Shown: piece after piece, positions 1 to 10,671 of the stretch
Layout: every line of letters begins with the position of its first letter
Numbering within the stretch: the stretch's first letter is position 1
Origin: an uncultured archaeon
Lineage (GTDB): Archaea; Hadarchaeota; Hadarchaeia; Hadarchaeales; Hadarchaeaceae
DNA: 10,671 nucleotides
NCBI GenBank assembly: GCA_937921735.1
Contig: CAKZTQ010000026.1
Span: 1-10,671, forward strand
Direction of reading: 5' to 3'
The notes under the pieces: model-generated
Seen by the model: the letters and a program-made list of their open reading frames with translations, nothing else
What the model was told of the DNA's origin: nothing
Databases searched by the model: none
Translations under genes and position numbers: made by a program

Positions 1-257
1 CTGGGGGTGCCGTTCAAGCCAGGAGAGGCCCAGGAGAGGCCGCAGAGCGAGAAGTAGCCCAGCTCGCCAGGTATGTCCCACCGCAGCCTGAAGCGGACGA
101 CGAAGTTGTCGCCCGGGGCGACGGCGATCGTCCCGCCCCCCGGCTCCCGAACCACGCCGGGGGCGAGGACCGAGGGGACATTCATCGCCAGCGGCAAAGC
201 CAGCGCTAGGACGAGGGAAAGTACGACCAGCCCGCGCCAAGCCCCCCCGATCCTCAA
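1..257 (-). CDS. Secreted/surface protein of unknown function, N-terminal 85 codons only (runs off the left edge; absent from the ORF track)
   Basis: Manual translation from TTG at 257: MRIGGAWRGLVVLSLVLALALPLAMNVPSVLAPGVVREPGGGTIAVAPGDNFVVRFRLRWDIPGELGYFSLCGLSWASPGLNGTP..., open to the edge. AAGGAGG (270-264) lies 6 nt upstream. The basic N-terminus and hydrophobic stretch look like a Sec signal peptide, and 'VAPGDNFVVRF' resembles the start of a beta-sandwich. Confidence 0.8.
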   Translation of the reverse strand, partial: MRIGGAWRGLVVLSLVLALALPLAMNVPSVLAPGVVREPGGGTIAVAPGDNFVVRFRLRWDIPGELGYFSLCGLSWASPGLNGTP

Positions 258-326: not shown

Positions 327-359
327 AATTTGATTATTGTAATGATATTATATCAAATT
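327..359. repeat. AT-rich inverted repeats (candidate operator or terminator)
   Basis: AATTTGAT (327-334) pairs with ATCAAATT (352-359) across a 17-nt spacer. A palindrome TGATAT-T-ATATCA sits at 343-355. Confidence 0.45.
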
Positions 360-747
360 AGCTCGGGGCGTACGGCCACTTGCTCTTTGCGCCCGAGAGC
401 TCGCCGAGGAAGGCGCTCCTGGTCGCCGAGTCTACGTATGGCCACGCCGACTTGATCTTCGACGCCCTGCCGAGGAGGACACTTCGTGTGACGGTAAAGG
501 TCGCCATCGTCGAGATCACGCTCCCCCCATCGTCCTCCAGCAACAGGACGACCCTCTCCACTGCCTCCGCTTGCGGGTGTGCCACGTTTTCCAGCAGGGT
601 CACATCAGCGGGGGTGGTACCGCTCCAGACGACGCGCTCACCCCGCTCCTCGCCGCCATATGTCAGGAATTTCAACACCAGTTTAGAGCCGATGTCGAGG
701 TGGAGGTCGATGTCTAAGCTGACCTTGTACAGCGTGGCGAGACCGAA
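358..747 (-). repeat. Shared C-terminal domain, copy 1 (129 aa, ends KSKWPYAPS)
   Basis: Aligns by eye with 1799..2185 at about 65/129 identities with one 2-aa gap. Confidence 0.92.
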
Positions 748-1761
748 CTCTATTCTCCCCGTGGTGAACCGCTTGGGCTCGGACCACAGGCCCACGTGCG
801 TCGAATTGTCTCCTGACCTCACCCGCCAGTACCAAGTGCCGCAAGAGAGCGGGGACTCGACCATGTAAGAGGTGGAGGACCATCCCTTGACCGTGATGAC
901 GTTGGTCGTGAAGGAGTTGTCTTGAGCCAACTGGAGGTCGTAGGAGCTAGCGCCTGAAACGGCGGTCCATCTAAGCGTCGGGATGGGGCTAGCTCTCACG
1001 TTGTCCTCGGGCTGGAGGAGCGTGGGCGCTTGGATCGTCAGCCCAGCATGGATCATCGCCGTGTACCATATGTTCGCCGTAAGCTGGACGGCCGAGCGGA
1101 GCCTATTCTCGGTTATGTCGCGAAGGGTGGAGTTCCAGAGGATGTCCTGCTGCAGCCAGTAGCTAAGCTTGTCCGGGGTATAGCCGGTGTAGCCGTAGCT
1201 CTCCTCGAGCATCGCCATGGTCGCGGCAAAGACGTTCTCCACCTTGAAGGGGAGATACCCATGCGTGGGGATCGATATCTCGTTTAGGCGGCTATTCACC
1301 TCGCTCTCGAATGCCCCGTGGTTGCCGCCGGGGTTGTAGTCAGAGGTGGCGTGCAGCGGCATGCTTGCGTCGGCTAGGTAATGGCTTATGACGCCCATCA
1401 GCTGCGCGGCCCCCGTCCAGTTTTTGGCGATGAGCCTTTGCACGAGCAGCGCGAAGTTGTCCTCCACCGTCCAAGGCAGCACACCCTCCGAGTACTGTTG
1501 CCTCGTGTGGGGCACGTCGACGTGGTAGTAGTGCCTATATCTTTCTTGGGGGTCGCTGCTCTTCCATTGGTCGGGCTTCGTGGAGTAGTCCTTGATGGTC
1601 GCCAGGTAAGCGGAGAAGAACGAGCCGCTCGAAAAGATGCGGCTGGCGTTGTCCGCTACGGAGATGTGGGTGGTCCCGCCCCAAGCGTGAACGGTCAGCA
1701 CCTGTGCCGAACACGCGAAGATAACTACGGCAATTGTTAAAGCGATGGTGGTCCGTTTCAT
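358..1761 (-). CDS. Secreted zinc-dependent phospholipase C / S1-P1 nuclease-family protein with Fn3-like domain and C-terminal 'WPY' domain
   Basis: Signal peptide MKRTTIALTIAVVIFACSAQVLTVHA is followed by WGGTTH (mature N-terminal Trp and His Zn ligands typical of the PLC/P1 fold), then PDQWK, HYYHVD, HYLADASMPLH and HGAFES. An Fn3-like segment follows (APTLLQP...LRWTAVSGASSYDLQLA...GTWYWRVR...WS). Start moved from 1815 to ATG 1761, which gives a clean signal peptide and no overlap with the upstream gene. Confidence 0.88.
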   Translation of the reverse strand: MKRTTIALTIAVVIFACSAQVLTVHAWGGTTHISVADNASRIFSSGSFFSAYLATIKDYSTKPDQWKSSDPQERYRHYYHVDVPHTRQQYSEGVLPWTVEDNFALLVQRLIAKNWTGAAQLMGVISHYLADASMPLHATSDYNPGGNHGAFESEVNSRLNEISIPTHGYLPFKVENVFAATMAMLEESYGYTGYTPDKLSYWLQQDILWNSTLRDITENRLRSAVQLTANIWYTAMIHAGLTIQAPTLLQPEDNVRASPIPTLRWTAVSGASSYDLQLAQDNSFTTNVITVKGWSSTSYMVESPLSCGTWYWRVRSGDNSTHVGLWSEPKRFTTGRIEFGLATLYKVSLDIDLHLDIGSKLVLKFLTYGGEERGERVVWSGTTPADVTLLENVAHPQAEAVERVVLLLEDDGGSVISTMATFTVTRSVLLGRASKIKSAWPYVDSATRSAFLGELSGAKSKWPYAPS

Positions 1762-1798
1762 CCCGTCTCGGCCCCCTTTCATCATTATATCCCCACTA

Positions 1799-2185
1799 TT
1801 AAGAGCTTGGCGCATAAGGCCACCTGCTCTTTATGCCCGAGATCTCCGAGAGCAATGCCACCTTCTCCCCCGATGAGGCGTACGGCCACCCGCCCTTGAT
1901 CTCGCTGGTCCTCCTCATGAGGTCACCCTTGGAGACGGTGAAGCTAGCGATCGTCCGTGGCAAGCCATCCCTGACCAATGCCAGCACGACGTTTTCCACG
2001 GCTAGGCCTTGTGGGTGCCCCACGTTTTCCTCCAGCACCAAGCGCGTGGGCCCAGCGCTTACCCATAAGACGTTTTCCCCTTGGTAAGTGCCGGAGTAGG
2101 TGTAGAACTTGAGGATGAGCTCGGAGTTCTCCTCAACGTACGCGTCCAAGCTCAAGCTGAGCCGGTAGAGGGTCGCCAGCCTAAA
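1799..2185 (-). repeat. Shared C-terminal domain, copy 2 (128 aa, ends KSRWPYAPSS)
   Basis: Blocks conserved with copy 1: F.LATLY..SL, L.LKF.TY.G...GE.V.W, ENV.HPQ..AVE.VVL, T.A.FTV, IK..WPY, E.SG.KS.WPYAPS. Confidence 0.92.
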
Positions 2186-5100
2186 CCTTGTCACCGAGAC
2201 CATCAAGGGCTGCGTGTAAGAGGCGCCACCCTCGCCATGCACCTCCACCCGGACGTAGTTGGTCCACGCTGGCGGGCTATAGGCGGCGACACCACCGACG
2301 AGCGGCCTGTTGTCGAGGAGCACGCCGTTGTCCCCCACGAAGAGCACGTAGTCGCCCTCCGCGTTGACTACAATGGCGTTCTCATTCTCCACCGCTATGT
2401 TATAGATTGCGGGTCCCACGCCGGGGCCAGGGGGCGAGCTCCGCACGCAGTAGAAGTTGCCCACGCGCAGGCTGCGAAGGATCGCTTCCCTCGTCAGCTC
2501 TTGGGCATTGACCACCACCCATCCGAAACGTCCCACTTGCGAGCTCGAGTGGGCATCGTCGCTCATCACGCCGTAGACCAACCTGTTTTCCGCCAGCAGG
2601 GCGTCCCAATATTCCCTAGCCTTCGCCCCGCTCGCCTCGTCGCCGTGTATCTCGATGTGCCTCAGCCCCGACTCGACCGCCTGCCTCAGGTTCTCCAACG
2701 GGAATGGGGCGCCGGAGTAGCCCGGATGCGCGGCGATGGGAATGCCCCCCTGCGCCAGCACGTCCGCCACCCACTCTGCGACGCTTCGGGTCGCCCAGCC
2801 CTCGATCAAGTTCTCCACGGATATCGCCACCATGTGCGGTCCTCCGCCCCTAGTTACCTCCTCACCGCTTATGCCTAGGAAGTTGGGTGGGTCCGTGAAG
2901 ACCTCGGAGTCCGTGATGTAGTTGTGGTCGGTTATCGCGTTGAAGCTATAGCCGCTGTAGCGATAGGCGAACATCATCTCGCTTGCGGTGTTCTCGCCGT
3001 CGGAGTTCTCGGTGTGAGAGTGCAGGTTGCCCCTGAACCAGTAGGGGTAGTTCTTGTAAGGGCTAAAGATCGAGATTCTGCCCGTCCTGACGCCCGCTTG
3101 GGCTATCGCCGTGGAGCTTGCGAAGTCGCTCGAGCCCGAGCTGGAGGAGACGATTACCACTATCCTACTCGAGCTCCCGCTCGCCGCGTCGCTGGGCACA
3201 CGGACGCTCACCGTCGCCGTCCCCGCCTCACCCGGCGCCAACGTGAGCAAGGAGGGCGAAATGCCCGAGACCCAGCCGACGTTGTCGCTGGCCACCAAGC
3301 TGTAGTTCTCCTCGAGCCCGCTCAAGTTGACGACGATTGCACGGTAGTAAAGCGTCACCCCAGGCGCGCCCTTCTCAAAGTCCGCGGACAGGCTCACCGA
3401 GAGTGCGGGCAGGGGGGCGTCGGAGATCTCCAAGTGGGGGCGCTTGTCGACCTCCCCCCATTCCTTAGACTCGAACGCGTAGATAAAGGCGTAAGGTGCA
3501 ACTTGGTTCTCGCTCTCCGCCCTCAAGCAGAGGCTCACGAGCTTGTCTCCGAGCAGCTCGCCAGCGACGAAGGAGGTGACGTCCCAAGAGTACCAAGAAT
3601 TTATGGTCGTCACGTTCACGGAGGCAAGGACATCGCCGTGAGGGGGCTGGTTGTTCCATGTGATCGTGTTCTCGTTCCAAGTGTCGTCGAGCACCGCCCT
3701 AGCTTGCACGCCACCGCCGGAGGCGCCGGTCATCCTCCAGCAGTAGTTGCGTAACCTAGCCGTGGCTAGGGCGAAGTTCTCTGGGATGGCCGAGAGGTTA
3801 AATTTGAAGAAACCTCTCTCGTTCTTGTAGGCAGAGCTCAGGTCGTTTCCGACGTAGACGTAGGTCTTAGCGCCGTAATTGCTGTCTGGATAGCCCTCCG
3901 CCACCTGAGCGTCGTCGCTGGGAGGGAGCGCAATCCTCCCCGCCCTCGCGGAGCAAGTAGCGGAGGCGCTGATGGGAGGATCGAGCGAGGTAGCGGAGAT
4001 GGTGATGTTGTCAACCGACCCAAACACCTCTTCCGGCGGTATCGAGACGAGTAGGAGGGTGACCCTGCTCTCGCCTGAGGGCACAACAAGCGAGCCCTCG
4101 AGAAATTCCAGCCCCCATCCCCTCGTGTCGGTCGCGGAGAGGGTTAGCGTGGCGTCTCGACCGAGGAAATTCGAGACGATGACGGCAAAGCTCAGGTTCT
4201 CGCCAGGTGAGCCGCTTTTAGAGCTCGGCACCACCTCCATCGCCAAGCCCTCCGCCCTCGCCGTACAGCTGGCATCGGCCCGCACCGCTCCATCGGTCAA
4301 CGAGATGGCAGTGACCGAGACCACGTTAGATGAGCCGAGGCTCGCGGTCGGGGGGACGGTGACGGTCAGCTGGACGGACGTGACCCCGCCCGCGGTGAGC
4401 GAGACGAGGTCCTCCGAGAGCGCGAGCTCCCAGCCCTCGATGTCACTCGCAGCGAGCGAGTAGTTGTCCGCCGCGTTTCCCGAGTTCGTAACCGTCACCT
4501 CGTAGCTCAGCGTCCCTCCGGGCGGACCCCGGGCTTCGGGGGGCGAAATGGAAAGCGTTACCTCGTACACGGGCACGCGCACTAGGCCATAGCCGTAACA
4601 GTTATCCCAGCCCGGCGCGCCTAGGTCCTCCGCGAGGTCGCGCAGGAGCGACCTGACCCGGTCGTTGGAGAGGCTGGGGCACCTCGCCCAGAGCAGCGCG
4701 GCTGCGCCAGCCACGTGGGGTGAAGCCATGGAGGTGCCGCTCAGCGTCGCGTAGCTCGAGCCCCTGTAGGTGGAGTAGATGCCAACCCCTGGCGCGGCCA
4801 GCTCGACCTCCGGCCCCTTCGAGCTCCAAGAGGGCACGTCGTCGTTGGCATCGGTGGCGGCCACGGCGATCACGCTCTCATACTTTGCAGGGTAGCTCAC
4901 GCCGCCATCGCCCTCGTTGCCCGCGGCCGCGACGAGGAGGAGCCCCTGAAGGTAGGCTTTGGAGCAGGCCAACCTGAAGGAGTAGAAATCCTCGCTCGCG
5001 CCGAAGCTCATGTTCACCACCTGCATCCCGTTGCTGACGCACCAGTCTATGCCCTCCACCACATCGCTCAGGTAGCCCTCGCCGTTGTCCGCCAGCACCT

Positions 5101-5722
5101 TCACCGCGTAGAGCCAGGCGGCCGGCGCGACGCCCACCACACCTAGATCGTTGGCGACCGCGGCGACGATGCCCGCGACGTGGGTGCCATGTCCGTTGAC
5201 GTCGTTCCACCTCGCCGGGTCGGTGCTGTTTTCGGCGCCCACCAGCGAGATGCCTCCCTTGACATTCGCCGCTAGGTCGGGGTGATCGTACTGGATGCCG
5301 GTATCGAGGATTGCCACCTTCACGCCCTCGCCCGTCGAGGTAGGCCAAGCGTTGGGGGCACCTATCCTGCTCACGCCCCAAGGCACTTGCTCCCCCAGCG
5401 CGCGCACGATGGCGTCGGGCTCCACGCGCAGTACCGCGGCGCTGGACCTCAGCCGCTCGAGGGCTTCGCGGGGCACCTCCGCCGCCAGCGCGGGGATGAT
5501 GCTATATATAGTGAGCACCCTCCCGCCGAAGCCGGCGATAAGCTCGGCGTCCGGCCTTTCCCTGAAGAGGACTATGACCCGAACCCCTCGCGAGGGCGCC
5601 GCGGCAGGCGTGGGGGCAAAAGAGAGAAAAAAGGTCGCGACGAGGGCGGCAGCGATGATCCTAGGGTGGATCATGCGCGGCAAGCGGCTGGATCGCGCGA
5701 AGTCGGAGCAATCGGGGCTCAA
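1799..5722 (-). CDS. Secreted multidomain S8 subtilisin-like serine protease: I9-like propeptide, S8 domain, Ig-like (NEW3/COG1470-like) repeats, DNRLRE/CBM96-like domain, PHP (CehA/McbA-like) metallohydrolase domain, C-terminal 'WPY' domain
   Basis: The catalytic triad is intact: ILD140TG, NGH178GTHVAG, GTS331MASPHVAG, with oxyanion AAAGN269. Propeptide ends at VEPDAIVRA. DNRLRE-like motifs: DAQV..GYPDSNYG, FFKFNLS, WNENTITWNNQP, WDVT, RPHLEI. PHP motifs: GNLHSHT..SDG, AITDHN, GEE, AHP, SDDAH. The TTG start at 5722 has AGGAGG 6 nt upstream; the alternative start is ATG 5674. Confidence 0.93.
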   Translation of the reverse strand: MSPDCSDFARSSRLPRMIHPRIIAAALVATFFLSFAPTPAAAPSRGVRVIVLFRERPDAELIAGFGGRVLTIYSIIPALAAEVPREALERLRSSAAVLRVEPDAIVRALGEQVPWGVSRIGAPNAWPTSTGEGVKVAILDTGIQYDHPDLAANVKGGISLVGAENSTDPARWNDVNGHGTHVAGIVAAVANDLGVVGVAPAAWLYAVKVLADNGEGYLSDVVEGIDWCVSNGMQVVNMSFGASEDFYSFRLACSKAYLQGLLLVAAAGNEGDGGVSYPAKYESVIAVAATDANDDVPSWSSKGPEVELAAPGVGIYSTYRGSSYATLSGTSMASPHVAGAAALLWARCPSLSNDRVRSLLRDLAEDLGAPGWDNCYGYGLVRVPVYEVTLSISPPEARGPPGGTLSYEVTVTNSGNAADNYSLAASDIEGWELALSEDLVSLTAGGVTSVQLTVTVPPTASLGSSNVVSVTAISLTDGAVRADASCTARAEGLAMEVVPSSKSGSPGENLSFAVIVSNFLGRDATLTLSATDTRGWGLEFLEGSLVVPSGESRVTLLLVSIPPEEVFGSVDNITISATSLDPPISASATCSARAGRIALPPSDDAQVAEGYPDSNYGAKTYVYVGNDLSSAYKNERGFFKFNLSAIPENFALATARLRNYCWRMTGASGGGVQARAVLDDTWNENTITWNNQPPHGDVLASVNVTTINSWYSWDVTSFVAGELLGDKLVSLCLRAESENQVAPYAFIYAFESKEWGEVDKRPHLEISDAPLPALSVSLSADFEKGAPGVTLYYRAIVVNLSGLEENYSLVASDNVGWVSGISPSLLTLAPGEAGTATVSVRVPSDAASGSSSRIVVIVSSSSGSSDFASSTAIAQAGVRTGRISIFSPYKNYPYWFRGNLHSHTENSDGENTASEMMFAYRYSGYSFNAITDHNYITDSEVFTDPPNFLGISGEEVTRGGGPHMVAISVENLIEGWATRSVAEWVADVLAQGGIPIAAHPGYSGAPFPLENLRQAVESGLRHIEIHGDEASGAKAREYWDALLAENRLVYGVMSDDAHSSSQVGRFGWVVVNAQELTREAILRSLRVGNFYCVRSSPPGPGVGPAIYNIAVENENAIVVNAEGDYVLFVGDNGVLLDNRPLVGGVAAYSPPAWTNYVRVEVHGEGGASYTQPLMVSVTRFRLATLYRLSLSLDAYVEENSELILKFYTYSGTYQGENVLWVSAGPTRLVLEENVGHPQGLAVENVVLALVRDGLPRTIASFTVSKGDLMRRTSEIKGGWPYASSGEKVALLSEISGIKSRWPYAPSS

Positions 5723-5880: not shown

Positions 5881-6537
5881 ATGAACCTGCTCCAGCTAAC
5901 ACCCGAGGGGAAAATAGTGATGGAATTGGCAAGCGGCGCCAAGAGCTTCACCGAGCTAAAGCACCTCACCAAGTTAAGCGATCGCTGGCTATCCAAAAAG
6001 CTCGAGGAGCTGGCGCATGCGGGTGTGGTCGAGCTGCGGAATGGCAAATACGGCCTGATCAAGCCCGAGGTCATTCACCGCGACCCCCTTGCGTCGATCT
6101 ACTTTAGAGCGAGGGCATCGCCGGAGGGAAAGGCCAAGCTCATCGCGGATGAACTGAGCCGAGATCGCAGGGTGCTGGCGGTCGTGGTCTTCGGGAGCGT
6201 CGCCAAGGGCGTCGCCGAGGAGGAAAGCGATGTGGACCTGCTGGTCATCACCGAGGGAGGGGTAGAGCTGGACGAGGAGGTCTACGGGCTCTCCTTCAAG
6301 TACGATGTGCCGATCGAGGCGATCTTCATGAGCTACGAGGAGCTGCTGTCTCACGCTCAAGCCAAGACCACCTTTTTGCTGGGGGTGCTCGAAGGGTATG
6401 ATGTTCTCCACGATCGCGCTGGCCTCGAGGGCCTCCTTTCCTTCCTCAAGGCGAAGGTTGAGGAGAGGTTCTCGTACGACAAGGAGGCAGGGGCTTGGAT
6501 TCTAAGGAGCGCGTCGCCTACCTCGACACCGCGATAG
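5881..6537 (+). CDS. Winged-HTH + minimal nucleotidyltransferase (MNT, Pol-beta superfamily) fusion; putative antitoxin
   Basis: N-terminal HxlR/ArsR-like wHTH (KSFTELKHLTKLSDRWLSKKLEELAHAGVVE...KYGL). The nucleotidyltransferase motif FGSVAKGVAEEESDVDLLV matches GS-X10-DXD. It lies directly upstream of a HEPN gene. Confidence 0.88.
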   Translation: MNLLQLTPEGKIVMELASGAKSFTELKHLTKLSDRWLSKKLEELAHAGVVELRNGKYGLIKPEVIHRDPLASIYFRARASPEGKAKLIADELSRDRRVLAVVVFGSVAKGVAEEESDVDLLVITEGGVELDEEVYGLSFKYDVPIEAIFMSYEELLSHAQAKTTFLLGVLEGYDVLHDRAGLEGLLSFLKAKVEERFSYDKEAGAWILRSASPTSTPR

Positions 6538-6929
6538 CTCAGCTGGAGGAGGCGAGGCTAGTTCTGGAGCACGGGCGGTACGCCTTGGCATCCTTCCTGA
6601 GCGCGTCTAGCGCCGAAAGCGCGACGTCCGCGCTGATCGTCTCCCTCGGGAGCAGGCCGAGCAAGAAGCACCGAAACTCGTTGGTGCTTCACCGCCTGTC
6701 GAGCTCCGCGGGGGAGCCGCTGAGGTCTAGGTTGCGCCCGCTGATCGAGAGCATGAAGAAACTCGAACCCCACATCACGAAGGCGAGGTATCCGATAAGG
6801 AAGGGCACCGAGCTCCTGCCGCCTGTGAAATTTTACTCAGCCGACGTCGCGAGGGAGCTTTTCGAGGAGGCAAGCCACGTCGTGGACTCAGTCCAGAAGT
6901 TGCTGACGGAGGCGCCGAACGGGTTTTGA
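6495..6929 (+). CDS. HEPN domain protein (RYP-type); putative toxin of an MNT-HEPN pair
   Basis: Pattern A..QLEEA...LEHGRY..ASF.S...AE.A..AL...G.RPSKKH...L....ARYP...YS...A.E....A..V. The TTG start has AAGGAGG (6481-6487) 7 nt upstream. It overlaps the MNT gene by 43 nt. Confidence 0.85.
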   Translation: MDSKERVAYLDTAIAQLEEARLVLEHGRYALASFLSASSAESATSALIVSLGSRPSKKHRNSLVLHRLSSSAGEPLRSRLRPLIESMKKLEPHITKARYPIRKGTELLPPVKFYSADVARELFEEASHVVDSVQKLLTEAPNGF

Positions 6930-7669
6930 CCGCGATTTCGATTAGCATGAAGGCTCGATGTCCGCCCGCGTTTGCAAAAATTAGGCCTCACGAGGGCATA
7001 GCTACGCGGGACGACTCGTCGATGGGGGGCAAGGCCTTGGGGGAGCCGACGCAGCAGCGGGGTGGGTCTCCTCTCGGCTGCCCTCCTTCGCCTGAGCCAG
7101 GAGCCCAGCAGGAAGGCGGCGAGGGCAGCGACCAACGCGAGGGCAGCGATGGTTGGAAAGGAGCTGCCCGTCGACACCTCGCCAGCGGTCTCCACCTTGG
7201 CCCTCGAGATGAGCTCGATCGCCCAGAGCTCCCCCGCCAGCGGCTGCCTGGTGACCGAGATCCAGGCCTCCCATCGCTGGTTGGTCAGGTTCTCCTGCGC
7301 GGGGATGTTGAGCGCCAGCTCCACCTCGGCATAGGAGTTCTCGCCCACCACGACGAGCGCGTTCTCCACGGTGGTCGAGCCATCCACGACGAAATAGAAC
7401 CAAGCGGTGTCGGGGATGGGGTGGTAGCCCTCCCTCACCTCGTTCTCTGGCGGCCTTTTGACGGAGATCGAGAAGGCTCGCTCGACGTTTTCGTGGTTTA
7501 TGATCACCAGCTTTCGCTCCAGCCGGCAGAACCTCCCCACGGGCACGTTTGGCGCGGTGAACTCCATCGGCGAGAGCTCAAAGGGCTCCTGCGCCAGCGC
7601 GGCCGAGGCGAGTGCCACGATCGCCAATGAAAGGACCGCGACGAGAGCACCCGGCTTCTCCCCGTTCAT
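6833..7669 (-). CDS. Membrane-anchored single beta-sandwich protein, paralog B (PapD/DUF916-like by pattern); C-terminal extension suspect
   Basis: The likely true start is ATG 7669, which overlaps the stop of paralog A as ATGA. Signal peptide MNGEKPGALVAVLSLAIVALASAALA-Q, a ~140-aa domain about half identical to paralog A, a TM helix (FPTIAALALVAALAAFLLGSWL) and RRRR. The first 84 aa of the 362-aa track ORF are an off-frame overlap with paralog A. Confidence 0.78.
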   Translation of the reverse strand: MNGEKPGALVAVLSLAIVALASAALAQEPFELSPMEFTAPNVPVGRFCRLERKLVIINHENVERAFSISVKRPPENEVREGYHPIPDTAWFYFVVDGSTTVENALVVVGENSYAEVELALNIPAQENLTNQRWEAWISVTRQPLAGELWAIELISRAKVETAGEVSTGSSFPTIAALALVAALAAFLLGSWLRRRRAAERRPTPLLRRLPQGLAPHRRVVPRSYALVRPNFCKRGRTSSLHANRNRGQNPFGASVSNFWTESTTWLASSKSSLATSAE

Positions 7670-8313
7670 CGATGGGAGAAAACCCGTCCTCCGACCCCCT
7701 TCTTGGCCTTCCTCCTCCTCGCCCAGATGCCCAGCGCCAAGATCGCCGCCGCCACCGCTATCGCCACGAACAATAGGAAGGGCCAAGACCGCCTCGAGAC
7801 TTCGCCGACCGTCTCCAACTTCATCCTCACCGTAGGCGCAGGGGCCACTACCTCGCCGGGTTCCGCCATCAGCTCTAGGGTTATCCAAGCCTCCCACCTC
7901 TGGTTGGTCAGGTTCTCCCAAGCCGGTAGGTCAAGCGCCACCCCGACCTCGCTCCAGTTCTCCCACTTCCCCTCCACCTCTCTGCCGACTATCAAGACCG
8001 CGTTCTCCACGCTCATGGAGCCGTCGTAGATGAAGTACACCCAAGTGGTGTCGGGGATGGGCGAGTAGCCAGGCCTCACTTGGTCACCGGGAGGTCTCAC
8101 CACGGAGATCGAAACGGCGCGAGGGATGTTGTCGTTGTGCGAGACGATCAGCTTTCGCTCCAGCTGGACGAACATGCCCACCGGCACGTCCCAAGCCACG
8201 AACTCAGCAGGGCTTGCGGCGACCCTTCGCTCCTGTGCTAGGGCAGGGGCGGCCAGGACGAGCGCTAGCGTCGCGGCTAGAAAGGAGGTCGCGAGGTACT
8301 TGGATCTCGACAT
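7666..8313 (-). CDS. Membrane-anchored single beta-sandwich protein, paralog A (PapD/DUF916-like by pattern), 215 aa
   Basis: ATG 8313 is preceded by AAGGAGATGGGG. Signal peptide MSRSKYLATSFLAATLALVLAAPALA-Q; C-terminal TM (WPFLLFVAIAVAAAILALGIWA) plus RRRKAKK. Shares VPVG, LERKL, PIPDT, VENA and ENLTNQRWEAWI with paralog B. Confidence 0.85.
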   Translation of the reverse strand: MSRSKYLATSFLAATLALVLAAPALAQERRVAASPAEFVAWDVPVGMFVQLERKLIVSHNDNIPRAVSISVVRPPGDQVRPGYSPIPDTTWVYFIYDGSMSVENAVLIVGREVEGKWENWSEVGVALDLPAWENLTNQRWEAWITLELMAEPGEVVAPAPTVRMKLETVGEVSRRSWPFLLFVAIAVAAAILALGIWARRRKAKKGVGGRVFSHR

Positions 8314-8390: not shown

Positions 8391-10671
8391 TTAAGCCCTT
8401 ACCGCCGTCAGCGTGACCACGGTCCACATCCTGCTGGGCACGGTTATCGAGCTCGGCGCCTGTATCTTGAGGTCGAAGCCGAATTCCTCTCCGGGCCTCA
8501 GCCCAGAGACTAGCGGGTTGTCGTTCTTGTTCAGCACGTTCCAAGCTGGAGCCGTGCCATACCACATCGCATACCTGTCGAGACCGATGTCCCCGTACTC
8601 GTCGAGCTCCCATCTCGCCACGGGCGCACCCGGCTCGCTCTTAGCATCGCTGCCCTTGATGGTGACGTTTACGTCCTTGTTGCCCACGTTCCTCACCGTG
8701 AAGTAGCTGCCGGTGGTCTCGGCGGTCTCGGTCTCGTCGAGGATGCCGAAGTGCCACGTGGTCGGCCATACCTCGATGGCTATGACCTCGACCTCGACGG
8801 TCAGCTTGATCCAGCCCTGCGGTACCCTCGGTCCGGGCACCAGCACGTGCGCGTCCACGCTAGCGTCGTCGCTGACTCCAGTACCCGTTGCGGTGACGGT
8901 TATCGTGTTCCACACGCTCGTCCTGAGGTCGCTGGGTATGGTGACCTCGAGGATCGCCTGGCCGAAGTTGCAGCCTGGCAGCGTCAAGCTGCTGGGTTCC
9001 AGCGTGTAGTTCCACGCCGGATAGCCTCGCTCGTTGTCCCTCACGTTTTGGCTCACGCTCAGGGAGTAGGTGTCCTGGACGTTGCCGAGGTTCTTCACCT
9101 TGACGATCCACCTGAGCTTGCTCCCCGGCGTGCCGGTCTGGACCTCCCATGGCAGGATGTCCACCCTCACGCCTCGAGCTTCGGCCACGTGGACCGTGCA
9201 GGTCTCGCTGATCACCGCGTTCTCGGTGTCGTCGCCCGTGCCGGTGGCCATCGTGCCCCTGGCCTCGACGGTTATGGTGTCGGTGGTGCAGCCGACCGCG
9301 TCCTTGGGCACGGTGACGCTGAGCACCGCGATGTCTTCCTTGCCGGGCTCGATGTAGAGCTCGATAGGCATGAGCTCCAGCATCCAGCCCTCGGTATCGC
9401 TGACGCTCAGGACGTACTTGTCTGCCAGCACGCCGGTGTTCTTAACTATCACCTTGAAGGTCAGCGGGTCGTAGCTCTTGTCGCCCCACTCTGGGTTGAT
9501 CACCAGCTTAGCCTCTTGGTGGCTGGGCTCGATCACCACCTCGACGCCCCTGAGCAGGAGCGCCCTGCCCATGCTGTGCGCTTTAGCGGTACCCTGACCC
9601 ACCGCTGGGGCCCAGAAGGACTCCCGGCCGGTGGCGGTGACCGTTAGGGTGTCGCGAGTGCAGTACACGTCGCTGCCTATGTTCTCCTCGACGACGAAGG
9701 AGAAGCTCTCGCCTGGGTTGAGGAACACCAGTGCCGGCACGCTGTACGTCAGCTGCCAGCCAAGCGCGCTCGTGACGCTGATGGCGTAGTTGTCCCAGGC
9801 GGTGCCCGTGTTGGTCACCGTCACCTCGAAGGTCACGATCTCCTCGAACCTGGCGCGGTTCTCGCTGGGCACGATCGACACCTCAACGCTCCAGCTTGGC
9901 CACTCGAGCAGCGAGGTCGGGGAGTAGACGCCCAGCTTGTCCGTGCCAACTAGCCCCATGTACGAGCTGCCTATTGCCGTCGTGGTGTCCACCGCGAGTA
10001 TCATATTGTAAGCAGCTCCGCCATAGTTGTCGACGGGATCGTAAACGCTATCGCTCTGGAAGCACCAGCCGAAGCCCAGGGCGCGCAGGATCTTGTTGTG
10101 CACTCGGTAGAAGTTGTAGCCAGCGAAGTCGGCGTTGTTGAAGATGAGCAGGACGCCCCCCGCGTTGACCCAGCTATTTATGTTGTCGACGTACTCGTCG
10201 GGCAACAATGTCGGGTCGCCGCCGGACCACCTAGCGCCAAGCTGGTAGCCGGCTACTATTAAGACATCGTTTTCTCCGATTATCCCAGTCCCCTTCAGCT
10301 GGGTGTTGTCCTCGGTTACGGTGTAGCCGAGGGCTGTGAGGGCAGCTCGAATCTGTGACACCCTGGCCCCTCTCTGGAATGTCCCATAGCCGGTATCCCA
10401 CAATATCTTAGTGGCGCCGGGCTTAGCCCATTGTATCGCGGCGTGCAGGAACTTGTCGAGGTAGGGGTACGGGTTTGCTGCAGCGTTCCACCTAAGGTTG
10501 TCGAGGGTGGATGTCAAACCCAACGCGACCACGGCGCCGCTGCCCACCTTTTGCGCCGCGACGATCGGCGGGCGATCGCCAGGCGCGTAGAGCCTGTAGG
10601 CAGGCGGCGTAGCGGGTTGACTATTGTCGAAGGCATTGGCCTGGCCCCTGGCTACGACGCCCTGCGTCCAC
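8391..10671 (-). CDS. Large cell-surface protein, 5'-truncated: class I GATase-like (DUF4350-like) domain, three Ig-like (NEW3/COG1470-like) repeats, C-terminal pilin/WxL-like domain
   Basis: The frame stays open past GTG 10547 to the window edge (WTQGVVARGQANAFDNSQPATPPAYRLYAPGDRPPIVAAQK-VGSG...), so the real start is outside the window. GATase-like motifs: KILWDTGYG, LGYTV, DVLIV, INSWVNAGGVLLI, NKILRALG, DSVYD. Three repeats V.V.I.P...F.V.V.N.G...D.Y.LSV. No C-terminal TM helix. Confidence 0.88.
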   Translation of the reverse strand, partial: WTQGVVARGQANAFDNSQPATPPAYRLYAPGDRPPIVAAQKVGSGAVVALGLTSTLDNLRWNAAANPYPYLDKFLHAAIQWAKPGATKILWDTGYGTFQRGARVSQIRAALTALGYTVTEDNTQLKGTGIIGENDVLIVAGYQLGARWSGGDPTLLPDEYVDNINSWVNAGGVLLIFNNADFAGYNFYRVHNKILRALGFGWCFQSDSVYDPVDNYGGAAYNMILAVDTTTAIGSSYMGLVGTDKLGVYSPTSLLEWPSWSVEVSIVPSENRARFEEIVTFEVTVTNTGTAWDNYAISVTSALGWQLTYSVPALVFLNPGESFSFVVEENIGSDVYCTRDTLTVTATGRESFWAPAVGQGTAKAHSMGRALLLRGVEVVIEPSHQEAKLVINPEWGDKSYDPLTFKVIVKNTGVLADKYVLSVSDTEGWMLELMPIELYIEPGKEDIAVLSVTVPKDAVGCTTDTITVEARGTMATGTGDDTENAVISETCTVHVAEARGVRVDILPWEVQTGTPGSKLRWIVKVKNLGNVQDTYSLSVSQNVRDNERGYPAWNYTLEPSSLTLPGCNFGQAILEVTIPSDLRTSVWNTITVTATGTGVSDDASVDAHVLVPGPRVPQGWIKLTVEVEVIAIEVWPTTWHFGILDETETAETTGSYFTVRNVGNKDVNVTIKGSDAKSEPGAPVARWELDEYGDIGLDRYAMWYGTAPAWNVLNKNDNPLVSGLRPGEEFGFDLKIQAPSSITVPSRMWTVVTLTAVRA
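8844..9890 (-). repeat. Three tandem ~105-125-aa Ig-like protein repeats
   Basis: Cores FEVTVTNTGTAWDNYAISV, FKVIVKNTGVLADKYVLSV and WIVKVKNLGNVQDTYSLSV, followed respectively by DTLTVTATG, DTITVEARG and NTITVTATG. Confidence 0.85.

Follow-up and report, generated by a model that had tools for sequence, protein, structure and literature searches.

A C-terminal module shared by unrelated secreted hydrolases of Hadesarchaea, a candidate cell-surface docking tag

[quoted passage not shown] Dockerins consist of a tandem, helix-forming duplication of ~22 residues with two-fold symmetry, usually located at the C-terminus of diverse secreted enzymes, in which equivalent recognition positions are alike in both repeats. 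SLH and other bacterial cell-wall-binding modules are portable and attach both exoenzymes and S-layer proteins to the envelope without a covalent bond; SLH modules are found at the N- or the C-terminus, and their ligand is a bacterial secondary cell-wall polymer. For archaea, passages of one paper describe PGF-CTERM as a tag at the C-terminus of numerous exported surface proteins within a single genome, with a tripartite signal made up of a motif, a TM helix, and basic residues (PMC6098224). The relevant passage of a 2017 review counts one S-layer-bound archaeal enzyme as known, and reports that in Staphylothermus marinus a protease of the subtilisin family sits on the S-layer stalk through non-covalent binding (PMC5744192).

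The window (the whole stretch of DNA analyzed, 10,671 nucleotides from an uncultured member of the Hadarchaeota) encodes two secreted hydrolases that end in a common module, with the following features:

358..1761, minus strand: gene 1, secreted Zn-dependent phospholipase C / S1-P1-nuclease-like protein with Ig-like domain and C-terminal module
1684..1761, minus strand: gene 1 signal-peptide-like N-terminus, with basic n-region, hydrophobic core, and V-H-A-like end (hydropathy heuristic, maximum 2.4)
1285..1671, minus strand: gene 1 Zn_dep_PLPC / S1-P1 nuclease-like catalytic domain (PF00882, E 2.4e-10; PF02265, E 4e-4)
490..768, minus strand: module copy 1, beta-sandwich part, 7 predicted strands (BLASTP, MAFFT, AlphaFold2, HMM)
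361..489, minus strand: module copy 1, helical hairpin tail (tail HMM, E 1.6e-14)
1799..5674, minus strand: gene 2, secreted subtilase with Ig-like domains, CBM96/DNRLRE, PHP (CehA/McbA-type) metallohydrolase, and C-terminal module
5597..5674, minus strand: gene 2 signal-peptide-like N-terminus (hydropathy maximum 2.45)
4586..5332, minus strand: gene 2 Peptidase_S8 (subtilase) domain (Pfam, E 5.7e-64)
3422..3928, minus strand: gene 2 CBM96 / DNRLRE domain (Pfam, NCBIfam)
2432..3040, minus strand: gene 2 PHP-type (CehA/McbA family) metallohydrolase domain (NCBIfam NF038032, E 5.9e-21)
1934..2209, minus strand: module copy 2, beta-sandwich part (BLASTP, MAFFT, HMM)
1802..1933, minus strand: module copy 2, helical hairpin tail (tail HMM, E 8.6e-18)

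The stop codon of gene 1 lies at 358-360 and its longest ORF extends to 1815; the likely start is M19 at 1761, in agreement with the 467-aa database form P0153. For gene 2, the stop codon lies at 1799-1801, the longest ORF extends to 5722, and the likely start is M17 at 5674. Besides the Zn_dep_PLPC / S1-P1 nuclease domain, Pfam identifies an Ig-like domain in the gene 1 product. The hairpin of copy 1 comprises two ~22-residue repeats, each closing in W-P-Y, with A-P-S as the final residues; the two repeats of copy 2 also close in W-P-Y, and the protein ends in A-P-S-S.

An earlier note, made from the sequence of the window, had claimed that two otherwise unrelated hydrolases share a C-terminal domain (about 65/129 identities by hand), beta-rich and then helical, on proteins with Sec-type signal peptides and no C-terminal TM helix, and this description was borne out throughout. 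BLASTP of the gene 1 and gene 2 proteins gave one significant alignment (residues 344-485 vs. 1169-1306, 67/142 identical, E 2e-35), all other segments having E > 2, such that only the last ~135 residues are common. MAFFT alignment of the last 134-135 residues of both proteins gave 65 identical columns, and AlphaFold2 places 7 strands before 2 helices. Each protein has a hydrophobic signal-like N-terminus by the hydropathy heuristic, and neither C-terminal sequence contains a hydrophobic TM stretch. Because only ~57% of the DNA alignment columns are in common (a hand count of listed invariant columns), the two copies, as judged from this alignment, are old paralogues rather than a recent duplication or assembly artefact.

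Pfam and NCBIfam scans of both window proteins placed no family on the common C-terminal tail; the module is present in neither database, and each described family matches at most 4 of 109 module copies, weakly. When only the window copy served as query, a word-indexed search retrieved 4 proteins; a profile search of a representative library (1.84e9 proteins) retrieved 372 clusters with the cutoff at E<=1e-3, and 224 when it was tightened to E<=1e-30. Both window genes match the A2 profile over its full length and up to the stop codon (E 2.1e-53 and 1.0e-50), and also match separate sandwich and tail HMMs. In all 21 full-length genome matches, 0-2 residues separate the end of the domain from the stop, and in 232 of 234 database proteins it ends within 9 residues of the C-terminus. 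Among 377 carriers, no protein has a hairpin that lacks a sandwich and none has two hairpins (0/377 each), and extra hairpin-less sandwiches lie upstream in 15; tail-only proteins were found neither among these carriers nor in the genome of the window (G000). These comparisons confirm, at the level of sequence, that the shared tail is a real, portable family without earlier Pfam or NCBIfam annotation. Titles and abstract openings of the literature on Hadesarchaea, Hadarchaeota, and archaeal surface or secreted proteins contained nothing on the module, nor anything on the envelope of Hadesarchaea or their handling of exoenzymes.

Named matches belong to Hadesarchaea, except for one partial Thermoplasmata record and several labelled just 'subsurface metagenome'. 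Carriers account for 5 of 66 Hadarchaeota genomes, with 3 copies in G000 and up to 15 matches in one genome. The module was not found in a 94%-complete, 3-contig genome of the same genus as the 15-match genome, nor in most other relatives, and because of this distribution it is, on the genomes searched, an accessory rather than a core envelope device. Module genes (145 in 89 loci) form clusters, in which as many as 6 lie within 20 kb. The locus-collection scans used a 7-row subset that represents two peptide patterns only, and therefore both collections are biased towards the I-K-G type of hairpin.

The AlphaFold2 model, built from a 19-sequence alignment (pLDDT 93.2, pTM 0.83), has a beta-sandwich of 7 strands and, after it, a hairpin of two helices closing in W-P-x-A-P-x, over ~135 residues; the sandwich is Ig-like, and the hairpin is a pseudo-symmetric, duplicated ~22-residue unit. 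The structural check proposed in the earlier note thus yielded a confident two-part fold, for which Foldseek returned nothing from the PDB at E<=1e-3. PDB sequences contained no match to the module, and the ESM Atlas no usable match. A wide structure search retrieved generic sandwiches and a single generic helical-hairpin row (residues 97-140). The best structural neighbours were Ig-like domains of GH2 enzymes (Z up to 8.0) and a porphyran-binding CBM (8wae_B, Z 7.3, 97 residues), with ~90-97 residues aligned at rmsd 2.7-3.3 across Z 7.3-8.0, where Z<=8 is the tool's stated background; the modelled sandwich may therefore be said to resemble generic Ig-like or CBM domains weakly. The hairpin conserves L, R/E, I, W, P, and A, an acidic loop not being among its conserved features, and the penultimate A-P is conserved in at least 90% of copies. 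In the sandwich, K, Y, Y, E, and H are conserved, and are also kept in one hairpin-less upstream sandwich.

A signal-like N-terminus, judged by hydropathy alone, is present in 109 of the 111 carriers with an intact 5' end, and a TM-like C-terminus, also by hydropathy, in 3 of 234. The carrier bodies include nucleases, phosphoesterases, proteases, and beta-helix, Kelch, and CBM96 proteins; by our tally of 120 listed rows these comprise Beta_helix/NosD (23), CBM96 (14), Metallophos (11), LTD (7), Kelch (6), Zn-PLC (5), S8 (5), ENPP (4), and others, with 22 lacking any Pfam domain. Many carriers also hold CBM96, LamG, or Kelch modules. The earlier note had anticipated numerous, taxonomically restricted matches, always C-terminal and on signal-peptide proteins with varied catalytic domains, and the family has this character, its terminal position being almost invariable; it is neither a previously described family, nor a local duplication confined to two genes, nor a domain of frequent internal or cytoplasmic occurrence. 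In the module loci, 34 signal-bearing proteins end instead in a TM helix plus basic tail, and for 19 of these the body is homologous to that of a module-ended protein (e.g., 40% identity over 1016 residues; 60% over 352). The alignments show that the module alternates with a predicted TM anchor on homologous bodies.

The two halves of the hairpin are 53% identical within a protein vs. 30% across proteins, and variable positions are alike in both halves far more often than in a shuffle control that ignores relatedness, e.g., 90/109 vs. 15 expected. On a helical wheel of our own reckoning, the co-varying positions share one face, and the invariant L, R/E, I, and W occupy a different one; in its sequence variation, the hairpin behaves like a recognition surface. 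Furthermore, in 24 same-contig pairs whose bodies are unrelated (from 9 contigs), the hairpins are 66% identical vs. 38% between contigs, and the sandwiches 52% vs. 54%; the contig-level hairpin excess was reached in 0 of 5000 random draws, controls that likewise ignore relatedness. The window's own pair is almost without excess (sandwich 0.48, hairpin 0.52). Where paired proteins agree in a residue, they use the same codon at 76% of such positions in hairpins vs. 57% in sandwiches (12 of the 24 pairs); because the within-contig likeness extends to synonymous sites, gene conversion without a shared partner could produce it.

We propose, at a probability of roughly 0.5, that the module is a non-covalent cell-surface docking tag in which the hairpin is the recognition element. 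Carriers would be exported by Sec via the signal-like N-terminus, after which the hairpin would bind a common component of the cell envelope, such as an S-layer protein or other scaffold, and so hold the carriers, among them nucleases, phosphoesterases, proteases, and binding proteins, at the cell surface; the module would thereby do the job of the C-terminal transmembrane anchor in its paralogues. The swapping with TM anchors, the symmetric co-varying hairpin, and the homogenisation of hairpins within contigs support surface docking indirectly, and it is from such observations that we infer binding by the module, the nature of what is bound, and the cell association of the enzymes. The Staphylothermus marinus protease provides a precedent for the proposed arrangement. 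Of the lineage-specific tag put forward in the earlier note, the restricted, portable, and terminal character and the occurrence on diverse signal-bearing enzymes hold; attachment to the S-layer or a scaffold, or routing through a processing step, stays putative. A more elaborate version is less likely: a wholly new archaeal surface-display system, with the hairpin as a dockerin analogue of at least two specificity classes that might plug into a scaffold, perhaps a coiled-coil S-layer stalk. On the cells of subsurface Hadesarchaea, the nucleases, phosphoesterases, proteases, and binding proteins would then be brought together in a bound complex for scavenging, and each lineage would see its tag and its receptor co-evolve.

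Searches of module neighbourhoods and of G000 revealed no receptor, scaffold, or processing enzyme. Two tandem TM-anchored proteins that adjoin the window genes were rejected as a general receptor, being present in only 2 of 66 genomes (single-protein search) and 2 of 46 family genomes (4-sequence profile), namely G000 and G003, and not in the genome with most module copies; in G003, the pair is syntenic with a subtilase-module gene. The largest cluster of non-module neighbours (44 ORFs, 33 loci), considered as a scaffold, proved to consist of paralogous surface proteins, 17 cut by contig ends and 27 ending otherwise, many in a TM anchor. A ~165-residue protein with 4 TM segments is encoded in 6 loci, just downstream of module genes in five and 7 kb off in the sixth, and was not found in G000 by tblastn; near-identical synteny is seen in 5 of these 6 loci.

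Alternatively, the module could be a sorting or processing signal rather than a permanent binding domain, read at the free C-terminus by dedicated machinery and followed by cleavage and/or covalent attachment, as in the T9SS CTD with PorU or sortase-type systems. The strict need for the extreme C-terminus, the single hairpin per protein, and the conserved penultimate A-P, all of them typical of signals and unusual in ordinary binding modules, are consistent with this, as is the parallel in fold with the T9SS CTD, likewise a terminal Ig-like sandwich (7 strands in the module) on diverse secreted hydrolases. However, the 109 copies gave no match to Por_Secre_tail or to another CTERM profile, the module has no TM segment or basic tail, and no recurrent peptidase or membrane-machine gene adjoins the 145 module genes. 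The exosortase/archaeosortase family (PF09721) was not found in G000 (83% complete), by a search in which the control was detected in Methanocaldococcus jannaschii, and an outer compartment requiring a further step of transport is not known in this lineage. We regard a sorting signal as unlikely.

It is also improbable that the module acts without a partner, as a CBM-like or adhesin sandwich that binds polymers, minerals, or necromass and is capped or stabilised by the hairpin. The GH2 and porphyran-binding neighbours would suit such a role, as would the residues conserved in the sandwich, kept even in one hairpin-less copy, and the CBM96, LamG, or Kelch modules that many carriers already possess; yet these neighbours score at background level. 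Moreover, ordinary CBMs are not limited to the last residues of a protein, and a partner-free sandwich leaves the symmetric co-variation of the hairpin, its within-contig homogenisation, and the swapping with TM anchors unexplained. Self-assembly, in which hairpins of different carriers bundle like with like into oligomers or mixed multi-enzyme particles, is very unlikely: the pseudo-two-fold hairpin with the same residues at equivalent variable positions, the likeness of hairpins within a contig, and the clustering of module genes would suit homotypic helix bundles, but at least two hairpin classes coexist in G036 (by our reading, I-K-G-x-W in 10 copies and I-P-x-x-W in 3). Homodimer prediction (two copies, 109-row alignment) gave 0.00 vs. 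a mark of 0.42, which the tool classes as 'no answer' and which weighs neither for nor against.

Hadesarchaea are uncultured subsurface archaea, and the module offers a sequence handle on a whole set of surface enzymes, one tag marking as many as 15 or more of the proteins that a genome exports; this set appears to serve the scavenging of nucleic acids, phosphoesters, and proteins. As a docking tag, the module would allow the non-covalent display of proteins by archaea to be tested, and, being compact and confidently predicted, it is a candidate for use as a display tag in structural and binding work. Because it is in neither Pfam nor NCBIfam, it could be added as a new domain model.

The module is a new family, though of a known kind. 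It shares with the T9SS CTD (Por_Secre_tail, TIGR04183/PF18962) an Ig-like sandwich at the extreme C-terminus of diverse signal-bearing hydrolases, but 0 of 109 copies match PF18962 or TIGR04183 at E<=0.1, the host is archaeal and without a known outer membrane, and the T9SS CTD has no counterpart to the duplicated helical hairpin; T9SS works with PorU/PorV, and no such partner has so far been identified for the module. With the dockerins of cellulosomes (type I/II), the hairpin shares the ~22-residue duplication and internal symmetry; it differs in its obligatory fusion to a beta-sandwich and in its column profile, which does not conserve the Asp/Asn-rich calcium loop of dockerins. None of the 109 copies match PF00404, and cohesin (PF00963) was not found in G000, the one genome searched (83% complete). 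Like PGF-CTERM, the module is an archaeal C-terminal tag on many exported proteins per genome; however, it is a folded domain of 135 residues that does not have the tripartite C-terminus, and a plain TM plus basic end is instead carried by the module-less paralogues in module loci, the archaeosortase family gene being undetected in G000 at 83% completeness. SLH modules are portable tethers, as proposed here, and none of the 109 copies matches such a cell-wall-binding family. A similar arrangement is that of STABLE in Staphylothermus marinus, an exoprotease held non-covalently on an S-layer component, the tetrabrachion stalk, as would be the case for the module; STABLE is a single enzyme of a crenarchaeon, for which the relevant passage describes no common portable tag (PMC5744192), and the likeness drawn here is one of arrangement.

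Genes 1 and 2 of the window encode otherwise unrelated proteins that end in the same ~135-residue domain (hereafter the module), as the earlier note had proposed. BLASTP of one protein against the other gives a single significant segment, which covers the final ~140 residues with 67/142 identities (E 2e-35), the remaining segments being at E above 2; MAFFT alignment gives 65 identical columns, reproducing the ~65 identities counted by hand. The module DNA of the two genes has ~57% of alignment columns in common (hand count of invariant columns), and thus the copies are regarded as old paralogues, not as a recent duplication or assembly artefact. Each protein begins with a hydrophobic signal-like segment and neither has a hydrophobic transmembrane (TM) stretch in its C-terminal sequence, both as originally described. 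The window is a complete contig of 10,671 bases, and its genes are as follows.

3-257, minus strand: another surface protein (signal peptide and first ~60 residues), running off the contig start
358-1815 (longest ORF; probable start 1761), minus strand: gene 1, Zn_dep_PLPC / S1-P1-nuclease-like domain and Ig-like domain (Pfam), then the module
1799-5722 (longest ORF; probable start 5674), minus strand: gene 2, Peptidase_S8, Ig-like domains, CBM96/DNRLRE and CehA/McbA-type PHP metallohydrolase (Pfam, NCBIfam), then the module
5881-6537, plus strand: nucleotidyltransferase (NTP_transf_2/Polbeta and HxlR-like wHTH; domain scan), overlapping the next gene
6495-6929, plus strand: HEPN protein (domain scan)
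7076-7630 and 7669-8313, minus strand: two tandem paralogues, 53% identical, each with a signal-like start, ~150-residue ectodomain without a Pfam match, C-terminal TM helix and basic tail
8391-10670, minus strand: large exported protein, Ig-rich and module-less (domain scan), running off the contig end

Genes 1 and 2 are adjacent, and the start at 1761 yields the 467-residue form of gene 1 held in the public protein collection. Gene 2 combines a subtilase and a PHP-type metallohydrolase within a single exported chain (1799-5674, minus strand). The N-terminal ~350-490 residues of the 8391-10670 protein are 37-43% identical to the bodies of module-bearing proteins elsewhere, and homologues of the 3-257 protein terminate either with the module or with a TM anchor; with both contig-end fragments included, the contig is almost entirely a surface-protein island. 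Between these surface-protein genes, the pair at 5881-6929 is the usual MNT-HEPN toxin-antitoxin arrangement.

AlphaFold2, run on an alignment of 19 module copies, predicts seven strands at residues 5-96, forming a beta-sandwich, and a hairpin of two helices at 99-115 and 118-137 (140-residue construct; mean pLDDT 93.2, pTM 0.83). The sandwich resembles GH2 Ig-like domains, fibronectin type III and one CBM, with Z up to 8.0, which is the background of the tool, and Foldseek with the module model returned nothing at E<=1e-3. When sandwich and hairpin HMMs were run separately over 377 proteins, the hairpin was never found without a sandwich directly before it, nor twice in one protein; sandwiches numbered one in 364 proteins, two in 13 and three in 2. 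The unit thus consists of one or more sandwiches and a single terminal hairpin. In other carriers, the PHP part of gene 2 follows a different N-terminal body and precedes an additional, hairpin-less sandwich.

The window copies have no Pfam-A or NCBIfam assignment, which bears out the statement that they match no known motif. When 109 non-redundant copies were scanned singly against Pfam and NCBIfam, each family was matched by at most 4/109, weakly, and the families are mutually unrelated; the best match of the 109-copy profile to PDB sequences had an E of 0.24. No literature on the module in Hadesarchaea was found at title/abstract level. Many hits beyond the two genes had been named as expected support, and a search of 1.84 billion representative proteins with a 19-sequence profile gave 372 matches at E<=1e-3 (325 at E<=1e-10, 224 at E<=1e-30). 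A two-sequence profile detects a third copy, cut by a contig end, in the window's genome (1.06 Mb, 60 contigs, 83% complete), and, among relatives, finds the module in four more members of that genome's taxonomic family, one having 15 matches. By the 19-sequence profile, the module occurs in 5/66 genomes and 3/20 genera of the phylum, and is not found in a 94%-complete, 3-contig genome congeneric with the richest carrier; thus, the family is accessory.

Named records with the module read "Hadesarchaea archaeon" in 6/6 loci, and source names among the 120 homologues listed (hand tally) are Hadesarchaea (6), "subsurface metagenome" (5) and "Thermoplasmata archaeon, partial" (1, on a 1,507-base contig). 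At least one module-less flanking gene matches the window's genome over >=60% of its length in 48 of the 88 non-window loci (median identity 66%, n = 134 genes, mostly to large contigs), which indicates that the carriers are chromosomal loci of this genome's relatives. In the related genome G003, a 92-residue ORF at ~141.1-141.3 kb of the 142-kb contig C11 (locus L041) covers only the middle of the module profile and so looks like a decayed remnant; at the end of contig C28 (L040), the hairpin is cut by the contig end.

Module genes are strongly clustered, accounting for 145 of the 498 ORFs in 89 loci, with up to 6 per 20 kb. A signal-like hydrophobic N-terminus is present in 109 of the 111 with an intact 5' end (the other 34 are cut there), in agreement with the proposal that carriers are signal-bearing; a cruder count on database gene calls gives 138/234, many of the others being fragments or starting inside the signal peptide. 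A common n-region, M-R/G-T-E followed by F-K/R-G-x-L-L before the hydrophobic core, is found in 78/234 carriers with unrelated mature parts (L027-L134, P0003-P0236) and in TM-ended paralogues, and is absent from both window proteins; it could reflect a type of signal peptide peculiar to the lineage, or 5' ends that the genes have in common.

Carrier bodies (hand tally over the 120 homologues listed) comprise Beta_helix/NosD (23), CBM96 (14), Metallophos, often with a 5'-nucleotidase C domain (11), PF00932 (7), Kelch (6), Zn-PLC (5), S8 (5), ENPP-type phosphodiesterase (4), PF13385 (3), PF02811, PF01364, PF13360 and 3-keto-disaccharide-hydrolase-like (2 each) and PF00112 (1), while 22 have no Pfam domain whatsoever. 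We take PF00932 to be LTD, PF13385 LamG, PF02811 PHP, PF01364 peptidase C25, PF13360 PQQ and PF00112 peptidase C1. The predicted variety of catalytic domains is thus apparent, with nuclease, phosphoesterase-type and protease bodies among others. All 21 full-length genome matches end 0-2 residues before the stop codon, and of 234 database proteins, 221 have at most 3 residues after the module and 232 at most 9, so the C-terminal position holds; in the two exceptions, the module runs on into the apparent body of another surface protein. Overall, the tests proposed earlier for a portable, lineage-restricted C-terminal tag were all positive. The final residues are nearly always A-P-x (A and P >=90% conserved in 109 copies); a subfamily (P0090, P0093, P0101, P0121, and P0150) has a conserved 9-residue extension (T/I-R-D-P-x-W...) after A-P-S. 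Since the module strictly requires a free C-terminus, we also consider that it may be a signal for sorting or processing, an unlikely reading.

We favor a non-covalent docking tag, at a probability of roughly one half, and we infer the mechanism of attachment. The same loci encode 34 signal-bearing proteins whose C-terminus is a hydrophobic helix plus basic residues; for 19 of these, a module-ended protein has a homologous body, in some cases over the full length (40% identity over 1016 residues, 60% over 352). Hence, the module and a membrane anchor can replace each other at the end of the same exported proteins, as expected if both retain the protein at the cell.

A ~22-residue unit is duplicated in tandem to form the hairpin, whose halves are 53% identical within a protein vs. 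30% between proteins (109 copies); the first half is 37% identical between proteins. At variable positions, both halves have the same residue in 90/109, 101/109, and 70/109 copies, vs. 15, 27, and 24 after shuffling. Codons at identical half-to-half residues agree in 433/949 cases vs. 376 predicted from codon usage, a slight excess, so that the symmetry is kept at the protein level. By hand helical-wheel reckoning, one face holds the invariant residues L, R (in helix 1) or E (in helix 2), I, and W; a second face holds the co-varying positions, and a third those that vary freely. The hairpin also shows concerted evolution within contigs: for 24 pairs of module proteins that share a contig and have unrelated bodies (9 contigs), hairpin identity is 66%, vs. 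38% between contigs, compared with 52% and 54% for the sandwich; the hairpin excess is seen in 9/9 contigs and was reached by 0/5000 random draws of between-contig pairs. Synonymous codons at identical residues agree 76% in hairpins vs. 57% in sandwiches (12 of the 24 pairs), which indicates that 3'-end exchange between paralogues contributes, and argues against a purely selective reading. In G036, another related genome, at least two hairpin classes were read by eye: I-K-G-x-W (10 copies) and I-P-x-x-W (3). Under docking, the hairpin would provide a two-fold symmetric, lineage-matched surface, with the sandwich as its obligatory base.

No partner was found among neighbor genes or in searches of the window's genome (83% complete) for archaeosortase-family and cohesin genes, neither of which was detected. 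The tandem TM-anchored pair (7076-8313) was rejected as a general partner, since among genomes of the taxonomic family it recurs only in G003 (contig C10, adjoining the subtilase-module gene). Five loci have, immediately downstream of module genes, a ~165-residue protein with a signal-like N-terminus and some four TM helices, and a sixth has it at a distance of 7 kb (L087:6329-6862, L090:7179-7676, L125:2158-2661, L079, L080, and L124); this protein is confined to a few related loci, with no match in the window's genome. A substrate-binding or stabilizing role that needs no partner seems doubtful to us, and self-assembly of the module improbable.

The module is a new domain family and, as a docking tag, would be of a functional kind already known. 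None of the 109 copies matched a T9SS, dockerin, or archaeosortase-tag profile. The T9SS C-terminal domain likewise places an Ig-like sandwich at the end of many hydrolases, and dockerins, like the hairpin, are a duplicated, symmetric helical segment; unlike dockerins, the module has no calcium loop. Archaeosortase tags are similarly carried by many surface proteins per archaeal genome (PMC6098224), but the module lacks their TM helix and basic tail. The module also resembles in logic a subtilisin-family protease of Staphylothermus marinus, which is bound to the S-layer stalk (PMC5744192). It belongs to none of these four systems, and the family merits attention in work on archaeal surfaces.
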